A program made the translations under genes and the position numbers. Positions 19,807 to 42,610 of a stretch of DNA of 64,000 bases are shown piece after piece (position 1 is the first letter of the stretch; each line of letters starts with the position of its first letter). The DNA is from Acidimicrobiia bacterium. GTDB taxonomy: Bacteria; Actinomycetota; Acidimicrobiia; Spongiisociales; ZC4RG35. The stretch covers positions 1,568,001 through 1,632,000 of the forward strand of contig CBDBCY010000004.1 in NCBI GenBank assembly GCA_965203555.1, given 5' to 3'. A model generated the notes under the pieces. It did no database searches. It was not told the origin of the DNA and worked only from the letters and a program-made list of their open reading frames with translations.

Positions 19807-19892
19807 AGCTCTGAACATCGCTCCCGGCGGTACGTCCGGCGGTGATAAGGTCATGGTCGAGGGGGCCCCGATACGAACAGAAGGAGCGTCTG

Positions 19893-20900: not shown

Positions 20901-20941
20901 GCCCAGGTCTACGGGGTTTTCGAATAGGGTGAGGTGGGTGT

Positions 20942-22078: not shown

Positions 22079-22217
22079 CCTCGGATAGATCGCAGTTGGA
22101 GAGAATTGTGCGTCATACCGTCAAAAAACGCCGATAAGTGACGGCTATGTATGCATTTTGCACAATGCGTGAGGGATCCGGAAGGCCTGATCCGGGTCCC
22201 GGCCACCTGCGTATCTT

Positions 22218-23504: not shown

Positions 23505-23557
23505 GAGCCGGTCCCCGACACCAGGGCGTGTTGACGCTTTTGGGGGGGCAGACTTCT

Positions 23558-24775: not shown

Positions 24776-24781
24776 GCCTAC

Positions 24782-24804
24782 AGTATGCACAGGGGGTGTG
24801 ACAA
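24782..24804 (-). promoter_or_regulatory. RecA-NDp/PafBC-like promoter motif
   Basis: TTGTCAC-ACCCCCTGTG-CATACT, 6 nt before the ATG; near-identical motif at 35252. Confidence 0.55.
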
Positions 24805-24983
24805 AACATCACCAAGTTGTGAAAACAAACACTAAAATACCGAAAAATCTCACCCCAGAGGTCTACGGCTACCGAAAAGCACCCACCGGGCGCCAGCGAC
24901 AAAACCGGCCTCCCGGTCGGTCAAGATTCCTCCCTCTTATCACCTCCACCTCATCCGCGGCGCGTTTGTAATGTGAACCCGCC

Positions 24984-25859
24984 CTACCCTGTCCACCCTT
25001 CGGCGGGGCGGTCGAACCAGACGTGGACCTGGCCGGTGCCGGTGGCGTTCTCGTAGTCGGAGAATTGGCGGCCCGGCGCCCGGCACCGCTCTCCGCCGAC
25101 CGAGGCGACCATGGCCAGGTAGTGGCCGAACCCCGCTTCCGGCTCATGGGGGAGGTACTCGGGCATCGTCCCGATGATCCGGGCATGATCACCATCCGCC
25201 ATCCACGCTAGGCGCTCCTCGTCGGCGGCCCGAGCCTCCGGAGTGAAAATGTGAACCGGATCGGATGCTTCATGGTCGATCAACTGCCGAAGCGGCCAGA
25301 ACCGATGGGTCATTCCTCCTGACGCCAGCACCACCACCCGCCGGTCCACCGAAGCAACGGCTCTGCCGAGCGCTTCCCCCAGGTGCAAGAAATCTTCGGT
25401 CTCCCCGGTCTGCACCATGCTGACCGACAACACCCTTTCGCTGCGGCACAGATAGTGGACCAGGTTGATCGTCCCGTAGTGGACCGGCAGGTAGGGATCG
25501 GAGATAGGGGTGCCTTTCACTCCGTTCCCGGTCACCTCCTCGGCAGCGGCTTCGGCCAAATCCGGGTCTCCCCGATAGTCGTAGGGAAGCTGGGAGATGC
25601 CGCGGGGAAGTTCCTCGGAGGTGTACCTGCCGCTGCGCCGCTCGTGGGAGGCGAACACATGCTCCACGGTGGTGTGCCAGTGGGTGTCGAATATCACGAT
25701 CGTATCCGGGGAGAGAGCGTCCAGCACCTCAGAGCGCAGCCTCCTCAGACCGGGCACCAGGCTGATCTCCTTGCCCTCGTTCAGTTCGTATCTCACCTCC
25801 CGGGGAAGCATCACCGTCGGAGCGTGGGAAATCAGTCCCACTCCCACTATCTCACCCAT
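24984..25859 (-). CDS. LigB-family extradiol dioxygenase (HpaD-like)
   Basis: SHAP, DTHW, YGT, LASGGMTHRFW, E..FGHY, YENATGTGQV. Confidence 0.85.
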   Translation of the reverse strand: MGEIVGVGLISHAPTVMLPREVRYELNEGKEISLVPGLRRLRSEVLDALSPDTIVIFDTHWHTTVEHVFASHERRSGRYTSEELPRGISQLPYDYRGDPDLAEAAAEEVTGNGVKGTPISDPYLPVHYGTINLVHYLCRSERVLSVSMVQTGETEDFLHLGEALGRAVASVDRRVVVLASGGMTHRFWPLRQLIDHEASDPVHIFTPEARAADEERLAWMADGDHARIIGTMPEYLPHEPEAGFGHYLAMVASVGGERCRAPGRQFSDYENATGTGQVHVWFDRPAEGWTG

Positions 25860-27327
25860 GATCGGTCTCCTCTCTCCAGCCCCCAGGACCGAGGACCGTG
25901 TTGTTCAGATCGCAGTAGAAGTCAAAGCTGTACGCGCCACCCTCCCGACCGATCCCGGAATGCCGGCTTCCGCCGAACGGGGCTCGCAAATCACGCACAT
26001 AGAAGCAATTTACCCAGGTGGTGCCCGACACGATCTGGTCGGACAACCGTCGGGCACGATCCGGATCGCCGGTCACCAACGCCGCCGCCAGCCCGTACCT
26101 GGTCGAGTTGGCCATTTCCACCACCTCTGCGTCCGAAGCGAACGCCTGGAGGGTCAGCACCGGACCGAACACTTCCTCGGTCAGAATCTCCGAACCCGGC
26201 GGCGCGTCCAGAAAAAGGGTGGGGCGATAGTAGAGACCTCCCAGTGCCCGGTTCGGCCCACCCCCCAGCACCGGCCGCGCCCCCCCGGCCGCGGCTCGGC
26301 GGACAAAGCCATCCACCCGCTCCAGGTGAGCCCGGGAAATCAGCGGACCCAGATCCGTACCGGCGGAGCGGGGATCACCCTGCACCAAACTCCCTGCCTT
26401 TGCAAGGAACCGATCCAAGAAATCGTCGAACAGAGACTGGTGAACCAGGAGCCGGGTGGCGGCCAGGCATACCTGTCCGGCATTGTCATACTGCTCCACC
26501 GCCAGATCCACCGCCATGTCGAAATCGGCGTCGTCCAGGATCACCAGCGGGGATTTTCCTCCCAATTCCAGGCTGAGCGGGACCAGGTTGGCGCCGGCCG
26601 CCGCGCCTATCAGTCGGGCCGTTTCCACCGATCCGGTAAAGCTGATCCTCGCCACCCGGGGATCGGAGACCAGCGCCGCGCCAGCCTCCTCCCCGTAACC
26701 CTGCACCACATTGAAAACCCCCGGAGGAAGACCGGCCTCCTCGGTGATGTCGGCCAGGAGTGAGGCAGTGAGCGGCGACCATTCGGCGGGTTTCAACACC
26801 ACCGTGTTCCCGGCTGCCAGGGCGGGCGCCACCTTCCAGGTCGCCAGCATCAACGGAGCGTTCCAGGGAGTGATGAGAACCGTCACTCCCGACGGTTGAT
26901 GGGAGACCCGGTTGCGGTGACCGCGGGTGTCGAACTCGGGGTAACCGAGTTCCAGGAGGTAGTCGGCGAAGAACCGGAAATTGTACGCCGAGCGGGGCAT
27001 GAGCCCTCGAAGATTGGAACGCAGCAACGAGCCGTTGTCCATCGTCTCGACCGCCGCCAGTTCCCCGACCCGCTTCTCGATCCCCTCGGCGATCCGGTGG
27101 AGCGTCTCCGCCCTTTCCTCCCGGGACGTGCGACCCCAGACCGAAAACGCCTGCTCGGCGGCTGACACCGCCGCGGAGGCCTCATCCGCCCCGCCCCGGG
27201 CCACCGAAGCCAGATGCGACTCGTCGATGGGAGAAAAATCGGGGAAGATCCCATCGGAGGCAACCCTCCGACCCCCTATCCAATGATCGAGAGCGATCTG
27301 CGCCCCCGCCACCGAAGCGGTTCTCAT
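25852..27327 (-). CDS. aldehyde dehydrogenase (HpaE / hydroxymuconic semialdehyde dehydrogenase-like)
   Basis: ITPWNAP, KPAEWSP, FTGS, LELGGKSP, GQVC, EEVFGPV, DLRAPFGG. Confidence 0.88.
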   Translation of the reverse strand: MRTASVAGAQIALDHWIGGRRVASDGIFPDFSPIDESHLASVARGGADEASAAVSAAEQAFSVWGRTSREERAETLHRIAEGIEKRVGELAAVETMDNGSLLRSNLRGLMPRSAYNFRFFADYLLELGYPEFDTRGHRNRVSHQPSGVTVLITPWNAPLMLATWKVAPALAAGNTVVLKPAEWSPLTASLLADITEEAGLPPGVFNVVQGYGEEAGAALVSDPRVARISFTGSVETARLIGAAAGANLVPLSLELGGKSPLVILDDADFDMAVDLAVEQYDNAGQVCLAATRLLVHQSLFDDFLDRFLAKAGSLVQGDPRSAGTDLGPLISRAHLERVDGFVRRAAAGGARPVLGGGPNRALGGLYYRPTLFLDAPPGSEILTEEVFGPVLTLQAFASDAEVVEMANSTRYGLAAALVTGDPDRARRLSDQIVSGTTWVNCFYVRDLRAPFGGSRHSGIGREGGAYSFDFYCDLNNTVLGPGGWREETDHG

Positions 27328-27669
27328 CTGGAACCTCCATCACCCGCAGGCCGGCCACCGGCCGACACTCGCGAAAACCCATCCCTATCCCGCGAAACCC
27401 GGCTGACCCCTCCTACCCGTTGGGCCCCGCCCCCGCCACCACCTTTCCGTTGATGAAAGCGCGCTCCGCAGGTCCCGCCAGGGGTCGCTTTCGAGGATAT
27501 GACCTCCTGTTTCTGCCGCGGTCCGATCGACGCCGGGAACGGACCGGGAGGTGTTTTTCGTGACATTGCCAATATGTGACGAAGCTGAGACACAATCAAC
27601 ACCCTGTCCTTCGTTTCCTGCGCGATTCTGTCATGTTTTTCACACCCCAATGGCATTCTGTCCGCTCTC

Positions 27670-28863
27670 TCAGCCGGATGAGACCCGCGCCATCTCCAGC
27701 GAGGCCCGGACTCTCTCCCCGGCTGCCCGCAACGCGCGGTTTTCCTCTTCGGAAAGGGTCATCTCCACCACTTCGATCAAACCGCCCCTGCCCAGCAGGG
27801 CCGGCACGCCCAGCACTATCCCCTCCATGCCGTATTCGCCCTCCAGCATCACCGACACCGGCGTCATTCCGGCCCTTTGGCCCCGCAGAGCATCCAACAC
27901 CTCACAGATGGCGTGTCCGGGGGCCAGGAATGCCGACCCGGTCCGGCGCAGGGACACCACCGCCCCACCGCCGCCTATGGTTCCCTCGACGCACCTTGCG
28001 ATCTGTTCGGAGGACAGCACCCGCCCCACCGGACGTCCCCTGATGGTCGCCCGGGACAGGACCGGCACCATCTCCGGACCGTGGCGGCCAAGGCAGAATG
28101 CCTGAACATCACGGGGAGCAACCCCGGCCTCCCGGGCCAGCAGGTAGCGAAAGCGGCTGGAATCCAGGGTGCCGGCCATTCCCAGGACCTGCCTGCGTCC
28201 AAAGCCCGACGCCGAGAGGGCCTCGACGGTCATTTCGTCCAACGGGTTGGTCACCACCACTATCACCGCCTGCGGGGCGTGGGCCGCCACCTCCTCCGCC
28301 ACCGAACGGACCACCCTCCCGTTGACGGCGATCAGCCCGGCCCGGTCCATTCCCGGAGAACGGGGACGACCGGCAGTGATCACCACCACTTCCGCATCGG
28401 CGAGCAGCGCCGACTCGGACCCACCCCTCACCCTGACCGAGGCGCCGGTTATCCCGGAGGTGTGCTCCACGTCGAGGGCCACCGAGGCGGCAAGTCCCGA
28501 CACCACATCCACCAGGGTGATTTCCGATGCCATATCCGAGACGGCGGCCAGGTGGGCAACAGTGGTTCCCACATTCCCGGCGCCGACCACCGCCAGCCTG
28601 GTCAGACGCCGCGGTCGCATTCCCACCGGAGGATCCGGCGCCATCCAACGGGGAGCGCTTCGGTACAGGACCCGCCGTACCGCGGTGGCGGGATCGACAG
28701 CCCGCGGCTCGGGGACGGGCACCGGCCCCTCCACCAACTCCAAGCCGAGGGTGGCGATCACCTCCCGGGCCTGGGGAGTGATGATATCCCCGGGTAGGAA
28801 GACGATCTCGCGGCGTCCCCTCCTCGCCTCCTCCCGGACCAGGGACTCACCGATCACAACCAT
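27670..28863 (-). CDS. malate/lactate dehydrogenase-family enzyme with EutQ-like N-terminal extension (BMC-associated)
   Basis: VVGAGNVG, ITAGRPRSPGMDR, VTNPLD, GTLDSSRF; ~75-aa N-terminus containing IITPQAREV. Confidence 0.85.
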   Translation of the reverse strand: MVVIGESLVREEARRGRREIVFLPGDIITPQAREVIATLGLELVEGPVPVPEPRAVDPATAVRRVLYRSAPRWMAPDPPVGMRPRRLTRLAVVGAGNVGTTVAHLAAVSDMASEITLVDVVSGLAASVALDVEHTSGITGASVRVRGGSESALLADAEVVVITAGRPRSPGMDRAGLIAVNGRVVRSVAEEVAAHAPQAVIVVVTNPLDEMTVEALSASGFGRRQVLGMAGTLDSSRFRYLLAREAGVAPRDVQAFCLGRHGPEMVPVLSRATIRGRPVGRVLSSEQIARCVEGTIGGGGAVVSLRRTGSAFLAPGHAICEVLDALRGQRAGMTPVSVMLEGEYGMEGIVLGVPALLGRGGLIEVVEMTLSEEENRALRAAGERVRASLEMARVSSG

Positions 28864-28871
28864 GTTCGCGC

Positions 28872-29495
28872 CTAGCGGCCTTCCACCGCCTCCACCGCCT
28901 CCACCGCCGCCTCCAAAGCGGTGGCCACGTTCTCCTCGGATCCGCTGATGAAAAGCCGCCCGTAACGACCCACCGCTCGGACCTGCACGATGCTGATCAG
29001 CGCCGACTTCTCGGCTGCATTGGCGCCGATGGCGATATACCCGGCGGGAGCGCACTCCACGATGCCCAGGGTCTCCCCCGGCACCACCATGCTGCCCCGG
29101 CGCCACTTGTTCAGCAACTGGGCCTGGTAGGGCTCCACCGAATTGATGCGCTGGACACTTTCGATCCGGGGTTTGAGCCGGTCATGAAGCGACATGCCCA
29201 GATGAGCCAGAATGGCTTCCCGGGCCACCGTTATCTCCGATGGAACCCGTGAGCGAAGAATGAAAAACCCGAATTCCCGTTCCACGATCTGGCTGGTGGC
29301 CTCCACCGTGGCAGCTTTGAGGGCGATATCCACCAGTCGGAACACCTCGTTGCCCGGCGCCATCTCGCCCACCAGCACCGAGTCGCCGGCCAGGGGAATC
29401 GATCCCTGCACGGTGGCCCCGTTGTAGGCGGCGAATTTGGGCTGCAGGCCGTCCAGTTGGAAAAAAGCGCGGATGGTCAACGAGTTGTCCGTCAC
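28872..29495 (-). CDS. BMC-T shell protein (CcmP/CsoS1D-like double-stacking type)
   Basis: LQPKFAAY..P..GD..EMAPG..DIALKA..QIVEREFG; second domain with GRYGRLFISG. Confidence 0.88.
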   Translation of the reverse strand: MTDNSLTIRAFFQLDGLQPKFAAYNGATVQGSIPLAGDSVLVGEMAPGNEVFRLVDIALKAATVEATSQIVEREFGFFILRSRVPSEITVAREAILAHLGMSLHDRLKPRIESVQRINSVEPYQAQLLNKWRRGSMVVPGETLGIVECAPAGYIAIGANAAEKSALISIVQVRAVGRYGRLFISGSEENVATALEAAVEAVEAVEGR

Positions 29496-30877
29496 CGGAC
29501 CCCTCCGAACTCATCCCACAGGTTGCGCCACGGACGGTTCTGGTAGGCAATCCGTTTGATGTTGATCAGATGCAAGGCGGTGATGTTGTCGGAGGATATC
29601 GAGCCCGACCAGGTGCCGGTGCCCAGCATGAAGCTCGGCTCCAGATCCACCGAATAGCCCATGCCGCCGTAAAGGCAGGGAGTGTTTACCAGGATCCGCC
29701 CGGCGGGGAGTTTTCCGAACAACGCCACCTCGTCGGGGTCGTGGGAATGAACCGCCAGCGTGTGGCCGATCCCACCGAAGTCCAGAATCTCCTCACACCG
29801 CCGAAACCCGGCCGCCCGATCGGCTTCCTCGTAGAAGGCCAGCACCGGATTGAGCTTCTCGTGAGACAGCAGGTGCTCCCGACCCACCGCTTCCAGTTCG
29901 GCGATCAGCACCCGCGTACCGGGCGGGGTGTCGAAGCCGGCCAGTTCGGCCAGCCGGACCGCCGATTGGCCCACCGTGGAGGGAATGATGCTTCCCCTCT
30001 GCCCGAAGATCACCCGTCCCAGCCGATCCGCTTCCCTCGGCGTGCAGAAGTATCCACCCGCCAGCCGCAGTTCGGTTCGAAGGGCGGGGGCTATCCGCCG
30101 GTGAGCGACTATCGCCTGCTCGGCCACGCAGGCGGTGCCGTAATCGAAAGACTTGGAGTTGATGATCTGCTCGGCCACCTCATCCAACTCGTTGACCATG
30201 GAAGGACCCACATACACGGGGACGTTCCCCGGTCCCACCGCCAAGGTGGGCTTTCCGGACGAGTAGGCGGCCCTCACCATGGCGGTGCCGCCGGTGGCCA
30301 TCACCACCGACGTGCGGCGATGGCGCATCAACTCGCCGCTTCCCTCCAGAGTCACCTCGGTGAGACAGTTGATCAGACCCTTGGGCGCCCCGGCCGCCTC
30401 CGCAGCTTCGGCCATGATTCGGGCGGTCTCCGCGCAGCACCGCACCGCTCGGGGATGGGGAGCGCAGACAATCGCATTACCCGCCTTGACCGCGGAGAGT
30501 ACCTTGAAGATCACGGTCGAGGTCGGGTTGGTGACCGGGATTAGAGCCGCCACCACCCCCATCGGCTCCCCCACCGCCATCACCTTGGTGGTCTCGTCAT
30601 GCCACAGCACTCCCACGCACCGGATCTTGCGAAGCCACTCCCACACTCCCAGGGCGTTATAGAGATTCTTGTACAGCTTGTCCTCGGCATTGCCGTACCG
30701 GGTCTCGACGGCCGCCATCTCTCCCAGCCGACCGCACTCCGGTTCGATGGCCACCACCATCGCTTCCACTATCCGGTCGATGGTTTCCTGGGATGCGCCG
30801 CGGAATCTCTCGAAGGCCGACCGGGCCGACGTAACCGCCTGCCGGGCCTGGGCGATGCTGCGAAGATCAGCGTCCAT
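29492..30877 (-). CDS. acylating aldehyde dehydrogenase (EutE/PduP/AdhE-N family)
   Basis: IPVTNPTST, PHPRA, ATGG..MV..AYSSGKP..VGPGNVP, SKSFDYGTAC, EKLNPVL. Confidence 0.9.
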   Translation of the reverse strand: MDADLRSIAQARQAVTSARSAFERFRGASQETIDRIVEAMVVAIEPECGRLGEMAAVETRYGNAEDKLYKNLYNALGVWEWLRKIRCVGVLWHDETTKVMAVGEPMGVVAALIPVTNPTSTVIFKVLSAVKAGNAIVCAPHPRAVRCCAETARIMAEAAEAAGAPKGLINCLTEVTLEGSGELMRHRRTSVVMATGGTAMVRAAYSSGKPTLAVGPGNVPVYVGPSMVNELDEVAEQIINSKSFDYGTACVAEQAIVAHRRIAPALRTELRLAGGYFCTPREADRLGRVIFGQRGSIIPSTVGQSAVRLAELAGFDTPPGTRVLIAELEAVGREHLLSHEKLNPVLAFYEEADRAAGFRRCEEILDFGGIGHTLAVHSHDPDEVALFGKLPAGRILVNTPCLYGGMGYSVDLEPSFMLGTGTWSGSISSDNITALHLINIKRIAYQNRPWRNLWDEFGGVR

Positions 30878-30882
30878 TGCTC

Positions 30883-32013
30883 CTATCCCGCCCTTCCCAC
30901 CGACCGCCGCACCGCGTCCAGATCGGCGTCGGCCCATCCCAGGGCCTCCAGACGACGGCCCTCGGCCATCAGATCACGTCCGCACATGGCCGACACCACC
31001 GTCACCAACGACGAGGTGACCGGCACCGGGACGGAAGCCAGTGCGGCCGCCGAGCAGAGCGACACCAGCGACCCCGCCGCACCATCCAGCACCGAACGAC
31101 GCAGAGCCTCCCCCTCGGATCCCGCGGCGGTGTTTGCTATCGGCGCCTGAGGAGCGCGAACTCCCCAGCGGGCCGCGACCGATGCCCGCTCCCCCCGGAG
31201 AGCCTCCACCAGGGCTTCGGTCTCAGGTGAAGGCGCGGCAGGACGCGCCAGGGGGGTTGCGCCCGGCAGCAACTCCCCGGGAGTCTCCCGGGTCAGGGGG
31301 CCGTCCAGAATCCCTCCGGGCACCACCGACCAGGAACTCTCGGTGAGACTGGTGTGCAGGACGGTGGGCAACAGGTCCATCGCCGGGAAGAATCCCGCCA
31401 ACGATTGGCGAGCCCCCTCGCCCCGGTCAGCCGGGTAGGCCGCCAGGGCTGCTCCGGAAGGGGAGTCCGACCACCGTAACCGACCGGTCCCCGAGGCAAC
31501 CACCGAGAACGGACAGGATTGCAACTCGACCAGGGTTATCGCTTCGTTTGACCCTCCCGTACGCAGCCACCAGGCCATCTCCAAGGCCCCGAAGGTGCGG
31601 CCCGGCGATATTGCCACGGTTTGCCCCTCGTTCAGCAGGCCGGCCAGCCGCATTCCCACCGCTCGCTGGTCGGTCAGAGATCCCACCACCAGCACCAGAT
31701 CGGTCCCGGCCACGGCCTGATCCATCCAGGGGATGGGACGAATGGCGTGATCGGCTTCGGGATCCACCCGGTAGTTTCCCACCGGACCGCCGTCCCGCAC
31801 CGAGATCCCGGAAGAGGTGAGCCGGGCTGCTTCTTTCCCCCTCGACGTCCACCAGCGGACCCGGGCGTCGCCGGCCGCAAATCCGGCCGCATACGCCCAC
31901 GCCTGGGCACCCGATCCCAATACCGCGATCTCGCTCCACGCGGGAGCGGGGACCGGGTGTTCGGACGTGGTGGCGCTCAGAGCGGCTACGACCGCCTCAA
32001 AGTCAGACAACAC
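30883..32013 (-). CDS. NAD/NADP octopine/nopaline (opine) dehydrogenase-like protein
   Basis: IAVLGSGA Rossmann start, PGRTFGALE, C-terminal VPVPVT.....S...GRDL..EGR.LEALG; divergent. Confidence 0.65.
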   Translation of the reverse strand: MLSDFEAVVAALSATTSEHPVPAPAWSEIAVLGSGAQAWAYAAGFAAGDARVRWWTSRGKEAARLTSSGISVRDGGPVGNYRVDPEADHAIRPIPWMDQAVAGTDLVLVVGSLTDQRAVGMRLAGLLNEGQTVAISPGRTFGALEMAWWLRTGGSNEAITLVELQSCPFSVVASGTGRLRWSDSPSGAALAAYPADRGEGARQSLAGFFPAMDLLPTVLHTSLTESSWSVVPGGILDGPLTRETPGELLPGATPLARPAAPSPETEALVEALRGERASVAARWGVRAPQAPIANTAAGSEGEALRRSVLDGAAGSLVSLCSAAALASVPVPVTSSLVTVVSAMCGRDLMAEGRRLEALGWADADLDAVRRSVGRAG

Positions 32014-32032
32014 TCAGTTCCGAAAGGTGTTT

Positions 32033-32317
32033 TCAGGACCTTCCGCCCAGTTGTGGCAGCATCTCGACCCCCGCATCGGGACGGGCAATCACGTGGACAG
32101 CCACAACTTCGCCCACTTTGTTGGCGGCGACTGCGCCCGCGTCGGTGGAGGCTTTCACCGCTCCCACTTCTCCTCGTACGAAGACCGACACCAGGCCGCC
32201 TCCGATCTTTTCCAGCGCCACCAAATCGACGTTGGCGGACTTCAACATGGCGTCAGCAGCTTCCACGGCGGCAACCATGCCCCGGGTCTCAATCATGCCT
32301 AAAGCTATTTTGTCCAA
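32033..32317 (-). CDS. BMC-H shell hexamer (EutM/PduA/CcmK-like)
   Basis: [47 protein letters not shown]. Confidence 0.96.
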
Positions 32318-32380
32318 GGCTTCTCTCCTTAGTGTTCGGCTGTTGGCGGGGCCACTGGGGGTCCCGGTTTTGGTCTGTTG

Positions 32381-32641
32381 TTACTTGGCTCTCTTGACAT
32401 CGTCAACGATCATCACCGCCGCCGCATCGGTGGGAAGACCCCGGAGAGCGGCGGCCTGGCGGGCCGCCGATCCCTCGGCGACCAGGATCAATTCTCCCGC
32501 CCCCGCTCCGACCGCATCGGCCACCACCGTCTCCTCACCGCCCTCGTCTTCCACCGACTCGGCCAGCAGCAGGGTCACCCCCTGGAGGCCGGGGTCCTTG
32601 ATGGTCCCGGTCACCTTGCCCGTGACACGGCAGAGACGCAT
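32381..32641 (-). CDS. BMC-P vertex pentamer (EutN/CcmL)
   Basis: MRLCRVTGKVTGTIKDPGL.G..VADAVGAGAGE..EGSAAR..DAAAVMIVD. Confidence 0.93.
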   Translation of the reverse strand: MRLCRVTGKVTGTIKDPGLQGVTLLLAESVEDEGGEETVVADAVGAGAGELILVAEGSAARQAAALRGLPTDAAAVMIVDDVKRAK

Positions 32642-32645
32642 CTGA

Positions 32646-33956
32646 TCAAAAGGCTTCCAGATAACGGTCCCGCTCCACTTGGGTGACATCGTTCTGCCAT
32701 CCTTCCGGGTCGGACTCCACCATGAAATTGTGTTCCCGCTCGGCTTGCTGGACCAAGGTGATGCGCAGCGGCTCGGGAAGGACTTCGGCGATCAACTCGG
32801 AGCCTTGGAACAACTCCACGGCGGTCGGGATATCGCTGGGAAGACGTTGGTGGCGAGTGGCGCCGTAGCCGTCGCTCAATTCCTTCTCGGTGGGCTCGGC
32901 GCCTTCGGCGATTCCCTTCAGGCCCGCCGCAAGTTGCACGGCGGTCAACAGGTAGGGATTGGCGTCGGAGGATCCGTCCCGCTGCTCGATGCGGGTGGAA
33001 CTTTCGCTGCCCTCGATCACTCTCAGTCCCACCGTGCGATTGTCCCCGCCCCAGGCGTTGTTGGCGGGGCAGAAGGTGTAGTCTTGCCGACGCTTCATGG
33101 CGTTGGGAGTGGGAGCGGATATGAGGGCGGTCTCCGCCATGTGCTGCTGGAGTCCCCCCAGATAGGAACGTCCCAGCGCCGACAGGCGACCCGCGTCGGA
33201 GAAGACGTTTCTTCCGTCCTTCCACAGCGACTGGTGCATGTGGAAACTGTTTCCCGATTCCATGAAGAAGGGCTTGGCCATGAAAGTGGCCAGGTATCCG
33301 TGGTTGTAGGCGATCTCCTTGACCGCGTTGCGAAACAGCATGGCGTTGTCGGCGGAGACCATCGCCTCCCGGTAACGAAGGTTGATCTCGATCTGCCCGG
33401 GGGCGTATTCGGGATTGGACATCTCCACCTGGATGCCCATCTCGGTGCAGAGATTGCGGATCGGCCCCACGACATGCTCGAACATGGCGCCCCGGGCCAG
33501 TCCGTAGACGGAGATCCCCGAATCCACCAGGTTCTTGGTCTCCAAATCGAGCAGGTAGAACTCGAATTCCACCCCGGTCATCACCTCGTAACCCTGGTCG
33601 GCGGCCCTGTCGAGCTGCTCAACCAGGACGTTGCGCGGGTCACAGACCACCGGACTCCCGTCCGTCTCCTCCGCTCGGCCGACTACCAGCACGACTCCTT
33701 CCTCCCAGGGGACCCGTCTCATGGTCTCGATCATCGGAACGACGTGGAAGTCGGCGTAGCCGTTCTCGAAGTTGGCGTACGGAGTGTCCCAGATGTCGTT
33801 GGTCACATCCATCTGGAAGATCGCGTTACACATTCCTATCCCGTGCTTGAATTCCTCCCACACCCCGGCGTGCATCCGCTTGCCCCGGGCGATCCCATTC
33901 AAGTCCCCCAGAGCGACGATTACCGTGTGAGTGCCCTTCGGCAACGATTTAGCCAC
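32646..33956 (-). CDS. glutamine synthetase-family gamma-glutamyl:amine ligase (PuuA/GlnA2-4-like)
   Basis: DLNGIARGK, GVEFEF, EYAPGQIEIN, ATFMAKP, GNSFHMHQS, WGGDNR, RIEQR, ANPYL. Confidence 0.88.
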   Translation of the reverse strand: MAKSLPKGTHTVIVALGDLNGIARGKRMHAGVWEEFKHGIGMCNAIFQMDVTNDIWDTPYANFENGYADFHVVPMIETMRRVPWEEGVVLVVGRAEETDGSPVVCDPRNVLVEQLDRAADQGYEVMTGVEFEFYLLDLETKNLVDSGISVYGLARGAMFEHVVGPIRNLCTEMGIQVEMSNPEYAPGQIEINLRYREAMVSADNAMLFRNAVKEIAYNHGYLATFMAKPFFMESGNSFHMHQSLWKDGRNVFSDAGRLSALGRSYLGGLQQHMAETALISAPTPNAMKRRQDYTFCPANNAWGGDNRTVGLRVIEGSESSTRIEQRDGSSDANPYLLTAVQLAAGLKGIAEGAEPTEKELSDGYGATRHQRLPSDIPTAVELFQGSELIAEVLPEPLRITLVQQAEREHNFMVESDPEGWQNDVTQVERDRYLEAF

Positions 33957-34079
33957 GGAACTCTCCTCTCTGTACCGTGTTTGATGTTCTTGGTGGGATT
34001 CTGCTTCTTCCTGCCTCCCAACAAGTAGCGGTATACCATCATAGTGGAATCTTCATCAACCGGGGGTTGGAGGAAGCCC

Positions 34080-35222
34080 TTGAGACGAGCCGTCGAAGCG
34101 GTGGTGGTGGGCGCGGGAATAGCCGGGGCCATGACCGCCCTGTATCTGCGCCGCGCCGGACTATCGGTGTGCCTGGTCGACGCCTGGGATCCCGGCCACG
34201 CCAGAGCCGCTTCCTCCGGAGTCCATCGGCTGATCCGATCCACCCACGGGACCGACGAACTCTACACCCTGTGGAGCAGAGAAGCCCGCCTGCGCTGGAT
34301 GGAGTTGTCCCAACAACTCGGACAACAGTTCTATTACGAATCGGGGGTGGTGATCCTGGCGGCGGAGGGTCACTCCCAGTGGGAGGATGCCACCCAGGAC
34401 ACCTTTTCGCGACTGGGCATACCTTTCTTCATCGTTCCCCCTCACGAACTGCCTATCAGGTTGCCGGTGGTAAACCCCCGGGGGATCTCCTACGGGCTGT
34501 GGGAGCCCGAGGCCGGATTCATCATGTCCCGGGACGCCTTGGTGGCGACGGTGGACCTGTTCAGATCCGAAGGAGGCACGTTCATGCGAGGCAAGGTGGA
34601 AACCGACGAGAACGAGCGTCCCATCCTCAATGGAAAACCCCTGCAAGCCGATCTGGTGGTCATGGCCTGCGGGGCCTGGATGGGCAGGCTGTTCCCCCGC
34701 ACGCTGGGCAGGCTTCTGGCCATTGTCCGGCAGGATGTGATCCTGGTATCCCCGTCGGCAGGCGATACCCGGTACGACTGGCGGAACATGCCCGGATGGA
34801 TCGACCACGGTTACCCCGCCTACGGAGTGCCCGCCGTCAAGGGTCACGGTTTCAAGGCGGCCTTTGCCTGGCACCACGGCATGATGGACATAGACAGTTC
34901 CGACCGGGTGACCGATCCCTCCACCGTGGCGAGGTGCCGCCGCTACCTGGCCACCCGCTTTCCGGAGTTGGCCGACTCGGTGATAACCGACCAGAAGGTG
35001 TGCCAGATCGTCAACACGCCGGATCGGCACTTCGTCATCGATCGCCACCCCGACCATGAGGACCTGGTGCTGGTTACCGGCGGGTCGGGACACCTCTACA
35101 AGCACGGACCGGTGCTGGGCGATTTCGTAGCGGGGTTTGCTCTCGGCAAGCACGGGACCAACCGGCGTTTCCGGCTGGGCCACGCCCGCACCGCTTCATC
35201 GGCTTCCGACGACCCTCAATAG
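34080..35222 (+). CDS. FAD-dependent amine oxidoreductase (sarcosine oxidase/DAO family)
   Basis: VVVGAGIAG, TPDRHFVIDRHP, GGSGH.YKHGPVLG; divergent from the BMC operon. Confidence 0.85.
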   Translation: MRRAVEAVVVGAGIAGAMTALYLRRAGLSVCLVDAWDPGHARAASSGVHRLIRSTHGTDELYTLWSREARLRWMELSQQLGQQFYYESGVVILAAEGHSQWEDATQDTFSRLGIPFFIVPPHELPIRLPVVNPRGISYGLWEPEAGFIMSRDALVATVDLFRSEGGTFMRGKVETDENERPILNGKPLQADLVVMACGAWMGRLFPRTLGRLLAIVRQDVILVSPSAGDTRYDWRNMPGWIDHGYPAYGVPAVKGHGFKAAFAWHHGMMDIDSSDRVTDPSTVARCRRYLATRFPELADSVITDQKVCQIVNTPDRHFVIDRHPDHEDLVLVTGGSGHLYKHGPVLGDFVAGFALGKHGTNRRFRLGHARTASSASDDPQ

Positions 35223-35251
35223 ACATCCCGGTCGCGCCGGGCCGGCGGGAG

Positions 35252-35274
35252 TTGTCACACCCCCGTCGTACATT
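35252..35274 (+). promoter_or_regulatory. RecA-NDp/PafBC-like promoter motif upstream of dnaB
   Basis: TTGTCAC-ACCCCCGTCG-TACATT. Confidence 0.55.
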
Positions 35275-35462
35275 CGGAACTGTGAAAAAATCTCCCGAAA
35301 GTCAACAAAAAACCTCCTAAACCGTCAAAAGTCCAAACTACCTGCTAGAACCCCTCTGCTGATTCAAAGTTGCGAAAGCCGATGCTAAGTCGGGAAAACT
35401 CGTCATTTACTTTTCGTTAATGGACACAACTTGTAACCGGTGCGATAAGAGACTCCATCCAT

Positions 35463-36872
35463 ATGGCATACGACAGATATCCCGAAGATGAATACCCGGA
35501 CCACCCACCCCCGCGGGGAAGGGTAGGGCGAGTACCTCCACACTCCAGGGAGGCCGAGGAGTCGGTGCTGGGAGCGATCCTGTTGAGCCGGTCCGCCACC
35601 AACCAGGTAATGGAACGGCTGGAAGCCGACGACTTCTACGAGCCGATCCACGGGTTGGTGTTCGAAGCCGCCCGCCGACTCTTCGACGAAGGCAGGGCCA
35701 TTGATGTCCTGACCCTGGCCGAGGAACTGCGGCGCACCGATTCCCTGGAGAAAATCGGGGGGCATGAGAGACTGGCCGATCTCAGCCAAAGCGTCCCCAA
35801 CATTTCACATGCCGACCGGTATGCGGCCATCGTGCTGGAACACGCCCAGAGAAGGCGACTGATCGAGGTGAGTCAGCGGGTCACCGATCTGGCCATGAAC
35901 CTGGACCAGACCACCGACACGGTGATCGATCAGGCCGAGCGGATGATGCTGGAAGTCAACGACGAGTCGGTCGAGGAAGGACTCCAGCCGGTCAGGAACC
36001 TGATGAAGGGCGTCTTTGAGGGAATAGAGCGCCAGGGGAACGAACTTCCCGGACTGGCGACCGGGCTGAAGGATCTCGACGACAAGCTGATGGGTCTCAA
36101 CCCGGGAATCTTCCTGGTGGTGGCGGGCCGTCCCTCGATGGGCAAATCGGCCTTCGCCCAAACCCTCGCCTCCCACACGGCGCAGGAAGGGGGCGTAGTC
36201 GCCCTGTTCTCGCTGGAAATGTCGAAGGAGGAGGTCTTGACCCGCCTTCTGTCCATGGTCGGCGAGGTGAACTCGTCTCGCCTCCGGTCAGGGGTGGCGA
36301 ATAACCAGCGGCTGTGGGACAGACTCTTGGAGGCGGGAGGAAAGATCCACGATTGGAAGCTCTACCTGGACGACACGCCGGATCCCACCGTTACGGAGAT
36401 ACGGGCAAAGTGCCGCAGGCTCCGCCACGACGAAGGCCTGGATCTGGTAGTTGTGGACTACCTGCAGTTGATGCCCTCCGGCGGCAGTTCCTCTTCAAGA
36501 AACCCCGAGAACCGCCAACAGGAAATAGCCGAGGTGTCCCGTTCCCTGAAGGCCCTCGCCAGGGAGTTGGACGTGCCCGTTATCGGCATCTCCCAACTGA
36601 ACCGGGCAGTCGAGCTTCGCAAGGACAAGCGACCCATGCTGTCGGATCTGAGGGAATCAGGCGCAATCGAACAGGATGCCGACATCGTGCTGTTGCTGTT
36701 CCGGCCCAAGTACTACGACAAGAATATGCAGGACGACGTGGCTGAAGTCATCGTCGCCAAACACCGGTCCGGCCCCACCGGCATGGTGCGAACCGCTTTC
36801 GCCCAGGAATACACCCTCTTTCGGAATTACACCGGAGAACTCCCCCCGGACGAGGACCAGGGCTACCGGTAG
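35463..36872 (+). CDS. dnaB: replicative DNA helicase
   Basis: PPHSREAEESVLG, GRPSMGKS, FSLEM, VDYLQL, SQLNR, SDLRESGAIEQDAD. Confidence 0.97.
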   Translation: MAYDRYPEDEYPDHPPPRGRVGRVPPHSREAEESVLGAILLSRSATNQVMERLEADDFYEPIHGLVFEAARRLFDEGRAIDVLTLAEELRRTDSLEKIGGHERLADLSQSVPNISHADRYAAIVLEHAQRRRLIEVSQRVTDLAMNLDQTTDTVIDQAERMMLEVNDESVEEGLQPVRNLMKGVFEGIERQGNELPGLATGLKDLDDKLMGLNPGIFLVVAGRPSMGKSAFAQTLASHTAQEGGVVALFSLEMSKEEVLTRLLSMVGEVNSSRLRSGVANNQRLWDRLLEAGGKIHDWKLYLDDTPDPTVTEIRAKCRRLRHDEGLDLVVVDYLQLMPSGGSSSSRNPENRQQEIAEVSRSLKALARELDVPVIGISQLNRAVELRKDKRPMLSDLRESGAIEQDADIVLLLFRPKYYDKNMQDDVAEVIVAKHRSGPTGMVRTAFAQEYTLFRNYTGELPPDEDQGYR

Positions 36873-36927
36873 ATACCGGTCCCATCCGAAAGTTTCGCCA
36901 CCCGGCTGTCATCCCCCGGGTCCGGTG

Positions 36928-39219
36928 TCAACCCGCGGTAGTGGTGGTCGTCTCCTCCGGTTCGCCGCCCGGCTCTCCCGTGGTGGGGGTGGTGTCCTCG
37001 GATCCGGTCTCAGGGTCCCCGGTGGTGGGGGTGGTGTCCTCGGATCCGGTCTCAGGGTCCCCGGTGGTGGAAGTCGTCTCGCCGACCCCTTCCGAGACAA
37101 CCACCAGCACCGGACTTCCGGCTTCGATGCTCTCCCCCGCCCCCGGCTCGGTCCGGACAACCCCCCCGGCGGGCACCGACTCGGAAACCTCCGTCGCCTC
37201 CACCCAGCCCAGACCCGCCTCTGACAAGGCCACCAACGCATCGCTGCTTGCCAACCCCACCACGTCGGGTATCACCAGGAAGCCCAAGCCTTCGGAGATC
37301 ACCACCGAAACCTGGCCGCCGGACTCCACCCTCTCTCCCGCCCCCGGCTCGGTCCGGATAACCCCCCCGGCGGGCACCGACTCGGAAACCTCTCTCACCT
37401 CCACCCACCGCAGTCCCGATTGCGCGAGAACAACCAGGGCCTCGCTGCTCGGCAGCCCCACCACATTGGGAACCACCACCAATCCCACCTCGGGCGCCGG
37501 CTCGGTACTTGCGGAAATGACGACCACCACCTGATCGGTGGCGGCGATTCCACCACCAGCGCCCGGTTCGGTCCGGATGACCTGACCGGCGGGCACCGTC
37601 TCCGAACTCTCGATGGTCTCCACCCATCTCAAGCCTGATTGAGCCAACACCGAGAGAGCCTCGCTGCCGGGCAATCCCACCACGTCGGGGACGACCATCA
37701 AGCCGGGACCGGTTGCCACCACGAGGTCGATCGGCGTCCTTGTCGGCAGGAGCGGTCCGGGCAGGGGGTTCTGGTCCACAACAGTCCCCACCTGGCGGCC
37801 GCTGTTCTCCATGAATTCGACTTGGCCCACCAAGAATCCCTGGGCGAGTATCAGGTTCTCCGCGGTGCCCTGCGTCTGGCCGATGACCAAAGGAACGTCG
37901 AATCTCTCCAGACCGCTGGAGACCACCACCTCCACCTCGGTTCGAGATTCCACCCGGACCCCGGCCGCAGGATTGGTGGCGATCACCCGGCCCTCCGGCA
38001 TTTCCTCGCTGCTCTGACGCACCACCCGCACGATCAACTCCGACTCCTGGATGGAGGCGAAGGCATCCGTTTCCCATCTGCCCACCACATCGGGGATGGC
38101 GACCATCACCGCGCCAGGCTGCGGCGCCGGCGCCTGAAGGAGATTCCACACCACCCAGCTCAGGCCGGCCAGGGCCACAAGCAGCACCAGGACTCCCATC
38201 ACGAACGGCAGCGGCACAGAACGCCGCTCCTGCATGGGCGAGTGGTAGCTCTGGGAGAGCAACCTTCCCCCGCGGGGCGCCCGGGCAGGCATTCTCGTGG
38301 CGGGAACCGGTTGCCTGACCATCACCGGAGGCTGTTGGGGAGCAGGGGGGGCAACCGAAGGCTGTTCCCCGGCGGCGCCGGGCAAATCCTCCCCCCTCAG
38401 CCATGCCTCCAGATCCTGGAGGAAGGGCTCCGTGTCCTGGTAGCGATTGTCGGGATCCTTGCTCAGCGCCCTGAGCACGATTAGATCCAGCTCCGGAGGC
38501 AGATCCCGATTGCGATGCGAAGGCGGTGGCACCTCCGCCGAGACGTGCTGATAGGCGACCGACATCGGTGTCTCACCCCGGAAGGGGGGGCGACCCACCA
38601 GCATTTCGTAGAGAACGACCCCCAACGAGTAGATGTCCGAGCGCATGTCCGCCGGTTTTCCCTGGGCCTGTTCGGGGCTGAAGTAAGTGGCGGTCCCGAT
38701 CACCGATCCGGTTTGAGTCAGTTCCGTCGCTTGATTCCAGGCCCGCGCTATTCCGAAGTCGGCCACCTTCACGGTTCCGTCCGAGGTAAGCATGATGTTC
38801 CCCGGTTTCACATCGCGATGAATCACGCCCAATCGGTGGGCAATGGCCAGGGCCAGAACAACCTGGCGGACAATTTCGACCGCCCTCCGAGGCGGGAAGG
38901 GCTTCCCATCGCCGGTGATATCCCGCAGACAATCCCCTTCCACCAATTCCATGACCATGAAATAGGCGCCCTCCGCCTCTCCCCAGTCGTAGATCCCCAC
39001 TATGTTGGGATGGTTCAGGTTGGCCGCCGATTGGGCCTCGCGGCGGAACCTTCTTACAAAGGATTCATCCTCGCTGTGAGATCTGGGGAGGAGTTTGACG
39101 GCCACTCGTCTGCCCAGGGCCAGATCCACCGCCAAATAGACGTCGGACATGCCCCCTCTAGCCAAATGGCTTACCAATCGGTAGCGATCAGCCAGGGTAT
39201 AGGGGAGTTCCATCTCCAT
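36928..39219 (-). CDS. pknB: Ser/Thr kinase with five PASTA repeats (PknB-like)
   Basis: HRDVKPGN, DFGIAR, GTATYFSPEQAQG, TM helix, VPDVVG-type PASTA repeats. Confidence 0.92.
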   Translation of the reverse strand: MEMELPYTLADRYRLVSHLARGGMSDVYLAVDLALGRRVAVKLLPRSHSEDESFVRRFRREAQSAANLNHPNIVGIYDWGEAEGAYFMVMELVEGDCLRDITGDGKPFPPRRAVEIVRQVVLALAIAHRLGVIHRDVKPGNIMLTSDGTVKVADFGIARAWNQATELTQTGSVIGTATYFSPEQAQGKPADMRSDIYSLGVVLYEMLVGRPPFRGETPMSVAYQHVSAEVPPPSHRNRDLPPELDLIVLRALSKDPDNRYQDTEPFLQDLEAWLRGEDLPGAAGEQPSVAPPAPQQPPVMVRQPVPATRMPARAPRGGRLLSQSYHSPMQERRSVPLPFVMGVLVLLVALAGLSWVVWNLLQAPAPQPGAVMVAIPDVVGRWETDAFASIQESELIVRVVRQSSEEMPEGRVIATNPAAGVRVESRTEVEVVVSSGLERFDVPLVIGQTQGTAENLILAQGFLVGQVEFMENSGRQVGTVVDQNPLPGPLLPTRTPIDLVVATGPGLMVVPDVVGLPGSEALSVLAQSGLRWVETIESSETVPAGQVIRTEPGAGGGIAATDQVVVVISASTEPAPEVGLVVVPNVVGLPSSEALVVLAQSGLRWVEVREVSESVPAGGVIRTEPGAGERVESGGQVSVVISEGLGFLVIPDVVGLASSDALVALSEAGLGWVEATEVSESVPAGGVVRTEPGAGESIEAGSPVLVVVSEGVGETTSTTGDPETGSEDTTPTTGDPETGSEDTTPTTGEPGGEPEETTTTTAG

Positions 39220-39258
39220 AGGCGATGATAGAAAGGCCAACTTTGCCAATAACCCTTC

Positions 39259-41912: not shown

Positions 41913-42610
41913 AGGGTTATGTCAGCAACAACTGCGGTGACGTTGTCCGAGGCGCCTCTACCCAACGCCGACTCCACCAGACTCCACACACACTCCTCGG
42001 TATCGCCGGTGGCGAGGATTCTCTTCAGTCGGCGATCAGAGAGCATCCGGTAGAGCCCGTCGGAACAGACCAGCCACCGGTCGCCATCCAGCACACCGGT
42101 CTCCGTCTCCTCCACCTCGAGCCACTGATCGAATCCCAGGACCCTGACCAGGCTCCCCGCCTTGGGCATGTTGTGGGCCACCCTCGGGTCAACCCCTTGC
42201 TTGATTCGCTGCCATGCCGCGGTGTGATCGTTGGTCAGCACCGTGATACGGTTGTTCCGAAGTAGATACGCTCGGGTATCACCGACATGGGCAATACGGG
42301 CCATCCCTTCGCCAAACTCCATCAAAGTCAGGGTGGTGTAGGTCCCGGTCCAGCGGGGCTCCTTCTCAACCAGGTCCAGGATGGCCTGGTTGGCCGCTCT
42401 TGCCCGATCAGAGGGAGATCCGTCGGCGCCCTGGGCAGTGTTGACCGCCAGATCTGCAGCCACATGTCCGAACTTCTCCCCTCCCAAGCCGTCGGCCACC
42501 ATGACGACCACCGGCGCCTCGGAACTTCCCGAGCCAAGCGGGAACATCCGATCCTGGTTGATTTCAGGACCGAATCCGATGTGGGTAGCCGAAGCCCACG
42601 TGCAGTTCAT
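41909..42610 (-). CDS. PP2C-family Ser/Thr phosphatase (PstP-like, no TM)
   Basis: NQD, VADGLGG, HVGDTRAY, CSDGL, DNVT. Confidence 0.9.
   Translation of the reverse strand: MNCTWASATHIGFGPEINQDRMFPLGSGSSEAPVVVMVADGLGGEKFGHVAADLAVNTAQGADGSPSDRARAANQAILDLVEKEPRWTGTYTTLTLMEFGEGMARIAHVGDTRAYLLRNNRITVLTNDHTAAWQRIKQGVDPRVAHNMPKAGSLVRVLGFDQWLEVEETETGVLDGDRWLVCSDGLYRMLSDRRLKRILATGDTEECVWSLVESALGRGASDNVTAVVADITL

Follow-up and report, generated by a model that had tools for sequence, protein, structure and literature searches.

One of the metabolosome types in the bacterial microcompartment (BMC) catalogue of Sutter, Melnicki, Schulz, Woyke and Kerfeld (2021, Nat Commun; PMC8217296) is MIC2, a 'metabolosome with incomplete core'. 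Its entry (supplementary file 4) comprises 22 loci from Acidithiobacillia, Alpha- and Gammaproteobacteria and two Actinobacteria, and the catalogue text assigns no function to the type. [quoted passage not shown] HMM00120_1_mic2 and HMM02866_2_mic12. MIC2 is placed nearest to MIC1, a type with 45 loci in Actinobacteria and two BMC-H proteins, and then to RMM1 (PMC8217296). It belongs to those catalogued types that have an AldDH and no recognised signature enzyme forming the aldehyde. Here we describe a locus of eight genes, at positions 27670-35222 of a 64,000-nucleotide stretch (the window) from an Acidimicrobiia genome (contig CBDBCY010000004.1), whose assignment to MIC2 is close to certain.

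This assignment is made because each feature that the catalogue gives for MIC2 was found in the window locus. The AldDH has neither an N- nor a C-terminal extension (position 1 of the model TIGR02518 aligns at residue 2) and thus no EP. In the pfam02866 enzyme, the Ldh domains begin at residue 88-89, behind an N-terminal extension. [quoted passage not shown] The locus is therefore not a new BMC type but a new member of a catalogued, functionally cryptic one. An earlier note on this DNA had found no match for the locus among the EUT, PDU, GRM, PVM and RMM types; the locus does have a match, MIC2, a type without assigned function in the catalogue text. Its inventory can be kept: all eight genes, including a divergent flavoenzyme gene, lie in the order and at the place it gave, its labels 'opine-dehydrogenase-like' and 'sarcosine-oxidase-like' hold, and the shell is indeed a minimal one of three genes. 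Beyond this core, the catalogue text and HMM table for MIC2 (as distinct from the locus diagrams) make no mention of a divergent sarcosine-oxidase-like gene, of RidA, of a synthase-like trio or of transporters, all of which are treated below; a DAO model is named in the HMM table for MIC6 only (PMC8217296). In a literature search, no publication came up in which MIC2 or MIC1 is given a function.

Seven closely packed genes run on the minus strand of the window (GC content ~62%) from 27670 to 33956, and the eighth, the flavoenzyme gene, stands divergently on the plus strand up to 35222, separated from the GS-like gene by 87 bp (Table 1). The start of the BMC-T gene overlaps the AldDH stop by 4 nt. 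Three starts were shortened from the longest open reading frames (ORFs), namely MDH to the ATG at 28863, AldDH to the ATG at 30877 and BMC-P to the ATG at 32641, a choice that rests on the beginnings of the domains and on the stop of the upstream gene; the BMC-P domain, for instance, begins at residue 17 of the longer ORF. The PF00936 match of BMC-T lies on its second half, and BMC-H is 61-96% identical across 64 related loci. A Pfam scan of the window covered 56 ORFs (19 + 37), all of at least 80 amino acids (aa). Among these, no further shell gene was present, and no match was obtained for PduL, Pta, acetate kinase, Fe-ADH, EutBC, PduCDE, a glycyl radical enzyme or a class II aldolase, in agreement with the earlier statement that classical signature enzymes are missing. 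Rfam gave no RNA family in 24000-36000, and scans for promoters and terminators returned site numbers not above those of shuffled sequence.

Table 1. Genes and other features of the window, with their positions, strands and the matches on which the names rest.
Feature	Positions	Strand	Matches and remarks
GS-family ATP-dependent ligase	32646-33956	-	first operon gene; PF00120 E=4e-84
BMC-P, pentamer/vertex shell protein	32381-32641	-	PF03319 E=5e-23
BMC-H, hexamer shell protein	32033-32317	-	PF00936 E=7e-27
Opine-dehydrogenase-like NAD(P) enzyme, 376 aa	30883-32013	-	CENDH (PDB 1bg6) match over full length
CoA-acylating AldDH (EutE/AdhE type), 461 aa	29492-30877	-	TIGR02518 485 bits
BMC-T, tandem-domain, CcmP-like	28872-29495	-	NCBIfam CcmP 201 bits, positions 4-204 of 213
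MDH (LDH-like), 397 aa	27670-28863	-	NF004863, 317-318 bits vs cut-off 283
MSOX-like FAD enzyme (flavoenzyme)	34044-35222	+	PF01266 E=1e-43
Spacer of 342 bp after MDH gene	27328-27669		inner 110-aa ORF, probably non-coding, no family match; no Rfam match
HpaE-like NAD-dependent semialdehyde dehydrogenase	25852-27327	-	TIGR02299 502 bits, cut-off 638
HpaD-like LigB extradiol dioxygenase	24984-25859	-	TIGR02298 131 bits, cut-off 316; PDB 8iq8 E=3e-25
DUF222-HNH endonuclease	23558-24790		
Schlafen/AlbA_2 protein with HATPase_c_4	22218-23561		
AAA_14/DUF4143 ATPase	20942-22078		
Ketol-acid reductoisomerase	19842-20900		unrelated, among defence genes
Type ISP restriction enzyme	14014-17361		
Separate Type_ISP_C ORF	17453-18187		strand opposite to Type ISP enzyme
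FitA-like/PIN toxin-antitoxin pair	11177-11866		
dnaB, then pknB-pbpA-rodA-PP2C phosphatase-FHA cell-division cluster	35463-43053		
Peripla_BP_6 binding protein, 537 aa	56957-58570	-	22 kb from MIC2 locus

To place the locus among its relatives, one genome per species was scanned with a 10-sequence alignment as query, and 65 loci were returned. MIC2-like are 63 of them, 8 of Acidimicrobiia type (L001-L007 and L009) and 55 from Pseudomonadota, so that the study set amounts to 63 species-level genomes as compared to the 22 loci of the 2021 catalogue. The remaining two are L064, a MIC1-like locus of Nocardioides, and L065, an unrelated distant homologue. The carriers among Pseudomonadota are mostly metagenome-assembled and include Rhodobacterales, Granulosicoccaceae, SUP05-clade Thioglobus, Halioglobus and Geminicoccaceae, among others, taxa that we take to be largely marine; L020, Aliishimia ponticola MYP11, is a cultured carrier. 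The isolate labels of a few carriers hint at sponge hosts.

When the window proteins were used in tblastn searches, the order and the strand of the seven co-directional genes turned out to be kept in all 53 loci that hold all seven, an arrangement far beyond chance. Hence the GS-like and opine-dehydrogenase-like genes are conserved beside the shell genes, as the proposal of the earlier note required. The divergent flavoenzyme gene was detected in 57 of the 63 loci overall and in 55 of the 55 that reach 1300 bp or more beyond the GS-like gene on its upstream side; in the six loci lacking it, the contigs stop at or within the GS-like gene. Because of this linkage in every evaluable locus, we regard the flavoenzyme gene as part of the MIC2 locus. 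The opine-dehydrogenase-like family is rare: of 1.84 billion representative proteins, 17 reach E<=1e-30, while E<=1e-10 is reached by 68 and E<=1e-3 by 349.

The flavoenzyme has its best PDB match in monomeric sarcosine oxidase (MSOX; 1zov, E=5e-32, and as a profile 1el5, E=7e-47). Its scores stay below the NCBIfam cut-offs for SolA, the N-methyl-Trp oxidase (186 vs 257 bits), and for soxA_mon (145 vs 480), which marks it in sequence terms as a relative and not an orthologue of these enzymes. In a profile alignment of 29 sequences to 1el5, the equivalents of MSOX R49, R52, K265, C315 and K348 were invariant or consensus, corresponding in the window protein to R62, R65, K271, the Cys in 'KVCQ' and K353; His269 of MSOX is not kept in the family. 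We take Cys315 to be the site of covalent FAD attachment and Arg49, Arg52 and Lys348 to bind the carboxylate of the substrate. Since these presumed carboxylate-binding residues are kept, an N-substituted alpha-amino acid would suit the enzyme as substrate.

In the case of the opine-dehydrogenase-like protein, no Pfam family was found at E<=0.001, Octopine_DH (PF02317) included, though its ordinary homologues P0061, P0069 and P0078 match Octopine_DH at 1e-34 to 3e-48. The protein nevertheless is, by sequence comparison, a divergent branch of the opine dehydrogenase family. N-(1-D-carboxylethyl)-L-norvaline dehydrogenase (CENDH) from Arthrobacter (1bg6) is matched over the full length, with E=1.2e-15 for the single sequence and E=7e-50 for a 27-sequence profile, at an identity of 24%. 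An AlphaFold model (pLDDT 85.7, pTM 0.85) shows the two-domain opine dehydrogenase fold with an N-terminal dinucleotide-binding domain, and its top Foldseek match is again 1bg6 (E=1e-24, TM 0.76/0.82), followed by octopine dehydrogenase (3c7d) and then by ketopantoate reductases and staphylopine-family dehydrogenases. The GxGxxA dinucleotide motif and the cleft motifs common to CENDH and this family (PGRTFGALE, ER..VA, GSLVPL and GRRLE) are kept across phyla. Additionally, a conserved Arg of the family stands at the position of Gln118 in octopine dehydrogenase, where Q118 binds the pyruvate carboxylate and H212 is the catalytic His (PMC6033044).

The window protein differs from CENDH by 27 extra residues at the N-terminus in addition to the lacking PF02317 match. 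In the model these form a helix (residues 2-14) and a disordered linker (15-27), with low confidence at 14-19, and the Rossmann fold begins behind them at residue 28; ordinary opine dehydrogenase homologues (355-370 aa) likewise begin their alignment at query residue 28-30. The helix motif xxFExxxxAL is kept from Acidimicrobiia to Gammaproteobacteria. Because a helix plus a linker at the N-terminus is the usual build of an EP, the protein is probably an encapsulated cargo.

Joined frames were seen in two places. At L054:9992-12259 the opine-dehydrogenase-like frame (query residues 3-286) continues in frame into the AldDH gene, and in P0083 (630 aa) an opine-dehydrogenase-like N-terminal part is joined to an Aldedh domain. 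Behind these joins could lie either a natural fusion of the two putative cargo enzymes or an error of assembly. An 822-aa ORF in L060 was rejected as a candidate for such a fusion, as there the AldDH frame extends across the opine-dehydrogenase-like gene in a different frame.

Regarding the AldDH, the best PDB matches are the acetylating acetaldehyde dehydrogenases 5j78 (E=1e-123) and 3k9d (E=1e-112), with the PduP-type 5jfl at 5e-41, so that by sequence it is closest to the acetylating acetaldehyde enzymes. The MDH carries an extra N-terminal domain of ~87 aa with the motif 'rViG..IvT..Are', conserved in 52 sequences. It resembles the EutQ N-terminus weakly, with E=0.004 in the window protein and E<=0.01 in 6 of 32 members (best E=5e-4). 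All 32 members matched the MDH model NF004863, and equivalents of the catalytic residues R102, R109, D168, R171 and H195 were kept in the 52 sequences; numbering and roles are given here as we assume them, R102 being presumably the Arg that selects oxaloacetate. With these residues kept, the recycling of NAD+ by the MDH-like enzyme, already proposed in the earlier note, is plausible.

The GS-like ligase stays below every NCBIfam equivalog cut-off, e.g. with 215 bits against 470 for type III GS (TIGR03105) and 197 against 650 for gamma-glutamylputrescine synthetase. The best PDB match is a structural-genomics GS-like protein (5dm3, E=8e-58), and the glutamate-methylamine ligases 9qur and 7cql reach ~1e-36, a weaker match than that to ordinary GS. 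By eye, the motifs with which glutamine synthetase binds metal, ATP and glutamate can be made out in the sequence; Pfam reported no GS N-terminal domain family for it, and the source names of its homologues are generic throughout.

Further information came from the accessory genes, for which the ORFs of the 65 loci were clustered and the representatives scanned with Pfam, the counts below referring to the 63 MIC2-like loci. A RidA-family imine/enamine deaminase occurs in 46 of them, and in 42 of the 49 that extend at least 2.5 kb past the MDH gene; in 40 of these 42 its start lies between -15 and +235 nt from the end of the MDH match. An ABC importer of LIV (amino-acid) type is present with its binding protein in 32, its permease in 31 and its ATPase in 33 loci. 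Upstream of the flavoenzyme gene, three consecutive genes encode a class-II glutamine amidotransferase (GATase; 22 loci), a GXGXG domain (22) and an FMN glutamate-synthase domain (23), and this trio is complete in 17 of the 38 loci with full flanks. Less frequent are a GntR-FCD regulator (18 loci) and a class-I amidotransferase-like protein (10 loci), and individual loci add a BCCT transporter (L033) or an adjoining gamma-glutamyltranspeptidase (L047). In the actinobacterial loci L009 and L064, an APC-family permease is encoded together with MgsA-like genes. None of the accessory genes received a specific name from NCBIfam, and a PDB search with the ABC binding protein matched unnamed receptors only. 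As a side observation, a Peripla_BP_6 binding protein is encoded elsewhere in the window (Table 1); it shares the Pfam family of the proteobacterial MIC2 binding protein and gave no tblastn match to it at E<=1e-3.

The domain content of the trio is that of MgsA, MgsB and MgsC, the N-methylglutamate synthase, of which it is a look-alike by domains. In Methylobacterium, mgsABC-gmaS stands beside a divergent N-methylglutamate dehydrogenase operon (PMC6237917), and the GS-like ligase and the sarcosine-oxidase-like gene of MIC2 take the places that match gmaS and the divergent dehydrogenase in this layout. The N-methylglutamate pathway (gmaS, mgsABC, mgdABCD) thus resembles the MIC2 loci in having a GS-family ligase next to a divergent enzyme of the sarcosine oxidase family. 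Several differences have to be set against this. The ligase of the window is not a GmaS equivalog and an mgsABC-like trio is absent from the 64 kb; the pathway uses the four-subunit oxidase MgdABCD, whereas the MIC2 oxidase is monomeric; and in its canonical form it has no shell, acylating AldDH, opine-dehydrogenase-like enzyme or MDH.

A comparison within the BMCs is offered by the MIC1-like locus of Nocardioides (L064), where BMC-H, opine-dehydrogenase-like, AldDH, BMC-T and MDH genes follow each other in the MIC2 order. No GS-like gene is present within the 12.8 kb covered, and a DAO-family enzyme that is 25% identical to the flavoenzyme lies downstream on the same strand. The locus additionally encodes a GntR regulator, a metallo-beta-lactamase-fold protein, an APC permease, a BMC-P and an MgsA-like amidotransferase. 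Such a layout points to the opine-dehydrogenase-like protein, the AldDH and the MDH as a cargo triad common to MIC1 and MIC2. RMM1 is an organelle of Actinobacteria for amine-derived aldehydes. According to the catalogue, MIC1 and MIC2 have the closest AldDHs, EP-less in both, and their MDHs share one kind of N-terminal domain, and RMM1, the aminoacetone-utilisation BMC of Rhodococcus and Mycobacterium, is the next closest characterised type by AldDH phylogeny (PMC8217296). Its cargo differs from that of the window, in whose 56 scanned ORFs neither an amino-alcohol kinase nor a phospho-lyase was found.

Altogether, the conserved enzymes are, as judged from their families, enzymes that handle amines or secondary amines, 2-oxo or 2-hydroxy acids, and aldehydes with NAD(H). 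We therefore propose, as the reading we favour, a pathway in which an amine gives an N-alkyl amino acid, the latter an aldehyde, and the aldehyde an acyl-CoA within the shell, with the MDH recycling NAD+; we hold this proposal to be evenly poised between right and wrong. A small primary amine or an N-substituted amino compound would be taken up, and the GS-family ligase would activate the amine with ATP as a gamma-glutamyl amide. This would be converted to an N-alkyl amino acid, i.e. a secondary amine that is opine- or N-alkylglutamate-like, by the synthase-like trio in many Proteobacteria, by the opine-dehydrogenase-like enzyme, or by both; the latter enzyme could make the N-alkyl amino acid, or reverse the reaction, through an NAD(H)-dependent condensation with a 2-oxo acid. 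The C-N bond would then be oxidised on its alkyl side, with release of the aldehyde and regeneration of the amino acid, a step that could be carried out by the opine-dehydrogenase-like enzyme inside the shell, by the sarcosine-oxidase-like flavoenzyme, or by both, and RidA, where present, would speed the hydrolysis of the imine. The EutE-type AldDH would turn the aldehyde into an acyl-CoA inside the shell. Finally, an encapsulated MDH would re-oxidise NADH by reducing oxaloacetate to malate, which would export the reducing equivalents, and would so stand in for the alcohol dehydrogenase of EUT and PDU organelles.

The logic of such a route would be analogous to that of the N-methylglutamate pathway, and the same logic of oxidising an N-alkyl amino acid is known from the saccharopine pathway. 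As the nearest AldDH relatives act on acetaldehyde, a C1-C3 aldehyde would be expected, and as no phosphotransacylase is encoded, the acyl-CoA would leave the shell as such. For the aldehyde-forming step within the shell we favour the opine-dehydrogenase-like enzyme, since it and the MDH carry extensions. The model is weakest in how it divides the labour between this enzyme and the flavoenzyme. Protein families, kept active-site residues, N-terminal extensions and synteny are what we observed; from these we infer the class of substrate, the direction and sequence of the reactions and the set of encapsulated enzymes.

Several observations weigh against this pathway. A single linear pathway does not account for the presence of both the flavoenzyme and the opine-dehydrogenase-like enzyme. 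No encapsulation signal can be recognised in the flavoenzyme, so that the aldehyde would be made outside the shell if this were the aldehyde-forming enzyme. By NCBIfam cut-offs, the GS-like protein is an orthologue neither of GmaS nor of PuuA. Regarding CENDH, we take His202 and Arg292 to be catalytic; in the opine-dehydrogenase-like family, most members have Asp or Glu at the His202 position and the window clade has a gap there (HMM alignment, in an uncertain loop), and Arg292 faces a variable column. As these presumed catalytic residues are not kept, the chemistry of the family may differ. The accessory genes, too, have to be read with caution. Beside the locus, the window and L001-L006 have neither RidA nor the trio nor the ABC importer, and tblastn found RidA, the trio and a matching binding protein nowhere in the window, so that the argument from accessory genes rests on other lineages; where flanks are complete, the trio lies within 10 kb in under half of the loci.

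The earlier note had proposed amine or opine catabolism, and modelled the amine part on gamma-glutamylation as in the Puu pathway. A role for amines or secondary amines is supported indirectly by RidA, the trio and the transporters in the relatives. The Puu-like form of the idea fits less well than an N-alkyl amino-acid route, because of the carboxylate-binding residues of the flavoenzyme and the N-alkylglutamate-type trio in relatives, and we consider it unlikely. In a Puu/Pau-like route the ligase would gamma-glutamylate a diamine or amino alcohol, the flavoenzyme would make a gamma-glutamyl aldehyde for an encapsulated AldDH, and a hydrolase would later free the glutamate. The GS-like ligase, the DAO-family flavoenzyme and the AldDH do represent three enzyme families of the Puu pathway, in which the amine is likewise tagged by a GS-like ligase before a DAO flavoenzyme oxidises it to the aldehyde, and the ligase does score on the gamma-glutamylputrescine synthetase model, although far under the cut-off. 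The residues that presumably hold the alpha-carboxylate in MSOX suit an N-substituted amino acid and not a gamma-glutamyl amide with its distal amine; the AldDH is CoA-acylating and not of PuuC type; and neither the opine-dehydrogenase-like enzyme nor the trio would have a role. A possible PuuD-type hydrolase could be seen in the class-I GATase-like gene of 10 loci, and a gamma-glutamyltranspeptidase gene lies beside L047, but the window and 53 of the 63 loci lack the hydrolase gene. A catabolism of opines as such would have an imported N-(carboxyalkyl) amino acid of strombine, alanopine or tauropine type cut in the shell by the opine-dehydrogenase-like enzyme, giving an amino acid and glyoxylate or another reactive 2-oxo compound for the AldDH and MDH. 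Such opines are linked to marine invertebrates; the carriers belong, in our own reading of their habitats, mostly to typically marine taxa with a few hints of sponge hosts, and the importer is of amino-acid type. Among solved structures, the nearest relative is that of a bacterial opine dehydrogenase which came from an enrichment on an opine and which accepts oxaloacetate and glyoxylate as well (PMC6033044), and the conserved Arg at the pyruvate-carboxylate-binding Gln position of octopine dehydrogenase would be in line with this. Yet the universally conserved GS-like ligase and the trio would be left without a role, the AldDH is nearest to acetaldehyde enzymes and not to known glyoxylate enzymes, and the presumed catalytic His of CENDH is not kept, so that this is quite unlikely in our judgement.

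Two further explanations are very improbable. The organelle might run reductively, with the AldDH turning acyl-CoA into aldehyde, the opine-dehydrogenase-like enzyme coupling the aldehyde to an amino acid, NADH drawn from malate through the MDH, and the GS-like ligase processing the N-alkyl amino acid product. The three putative cargo enzymes all depend on NAD(H) and could in principle run in either direction, the cofactors would be in balance, and opine dehydrogenases naturally run in the reductive direction (PMC6033044). Against this, the linked transporters are binding-protein-dependent importers and permeases, and RidA and an oxidase are present. The GntR-FCD regulator is presumably of a kind usual for catabolic operons, and we know of no metabolosome that is biosynthetic. 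Hardly credible, to the same degree, is the idea that the opine-dehydrogenase-like protein is a non-enzymatic scaffold whose N-terminal peptide recruits the EP-less AldDH, with the flavoenzyme alone making the aldehyde. This would account for an EP on the former and none on the latter, for the loss of the presumed catalytic His and Arg of CENDH, and for the missing Pfam match at E<=1e-3 where ordinary homologues match strongly, but the preservation of GxGxxA and the cleft motifs across phyla points to selection on a ligand-binding cleft.

A more far-reaching form of the N-alkyl amino-acid route, which we advance tentatively and consider doubtful as a whole, is that MIC2 would be the first metabolosome fed by a secondary-amine shuttle and not by a lyase, dehydratase, aldolase or radical enzyme. 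A scarce amine such as methylamine, ethylamine or ethanolamine would become a gamma-glutamyl amide and then an N-alkyl amino acid on a 2-oxo acid; its oxidative split in the shell would keep the aldehyde, possibly formaldehyde, from the cytoplasm, and the reducing power would exit as malate. On this view MIC2 would represent a variant of the N-methylglutamate or saccharopine logic that is enclosed in a shell and balanced in its cofactors, transferred among Acidimicrobiia, Alpha- and Gammaproteobacteria that are probably mostly marine.

The window provides a clean actinobacterial example of MIC2. For its missing steps, the linked flavoenzyme, the opine-dehydrogenase-like enzyme with its putative encapsulation tag and the GS-like ligase are candidates, joined in many genomes by the N-methylglutamate-synthase-like trio, RidA and the amino-acid-type importer. 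The present analysis adds the larger set of loci, the universally linked sarcosine-oxidase-like gene and the accessory genes pointing to an N-alkyl amino-acid route. Should this route be correct, it would represent a new way to feed a metabolosome, a malate/oxaloacetate solution to the recycling of NAD+, and an unrecognised sink for small amines in mostly marine-named bacterial taxa.

The closest loci are those of other Acidimicrobiia, where the opine-dehydrogenase-like protein is 70-83% and the AldDH up to 94% identical, and the window is accordingly placed in their clade. Next to the window locus lie dnaB and a cell-division cluster beginning with pknB (Table 1), and dnaB and pknB flank the MIC2 locus likewise in L001-L004 and L006, which argues for a fixed chromosomal site in the window clade. 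In a quick AldDH tree of 50 loci and the window, the window and L001-L006 form one well-supported, long-branched clade, with the Acidimicrobiia locus L007 outside it, and the sequences of Granulosicoccaceae, Halioglobus and Chromatiales are nested among alphaproteobacterial ones. This mixing of alpha- and gammaproteobacterial sequences suggests, as far as a quick tree allows, repeated lateral transfer of the whole locus.

Compared with catalogued MIC2, the window clade has an additional pair of genes downstream, encoding an HpaE-like semialdehyde dehydrogenase and a LigB extradiol dioxygenase, which overlap by 8 nt. The pair follows the MDH gene in five of the six close Acidimicrobiia loci and in none of the 57 others. 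In L001, L002, L005 and L006 it begins ~20-35 nt past the MDH match, and because of this short spacing it is probably in the same operon as the MIC2 genes there. In the window a longer spacer intervenes (Table 1), whose part near the MDH gene looks less GC-rich by eye. The pair could reflect a link with a catecholic compound that is specific to the clade, or else be merely a neighbouring operon.

The aromatics (ARO) BMC was also considered on account of this pair. That type has a two-subunit 2-aminophenol dioxygenase beside ARO-specific shell proteins and an IclR regulator (PMC10470539). The window has a single LigB gene, nearest to 3,4-dihydroxyphenylacetate (homoprotocatechuate) 2,3-dioxygenase; the beta subunit of 2-aminophenol 1,6-dioxygenase (7txy_B) is matched at 2e-14, and the LigB protein has no N-terminal extension. 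ARO was rejected because of this one homoprotocatechuate-type dioxygenase, the different shell set and the confinement of the pair to the window clade.

On its other side the pair is followed by a run of genes of defence or mobile type that flanks the locus (11177-24790) and includes an endonuclease, a Schlafen/AlbA_2 protein, an ATPase and a toxin-antitoxin pair (Table 1). The Type ISP restriction enzyme in this run and the separate Type_ISP_C ORF on the opposite strand are possibly the parts of a broken or rearranged gene.

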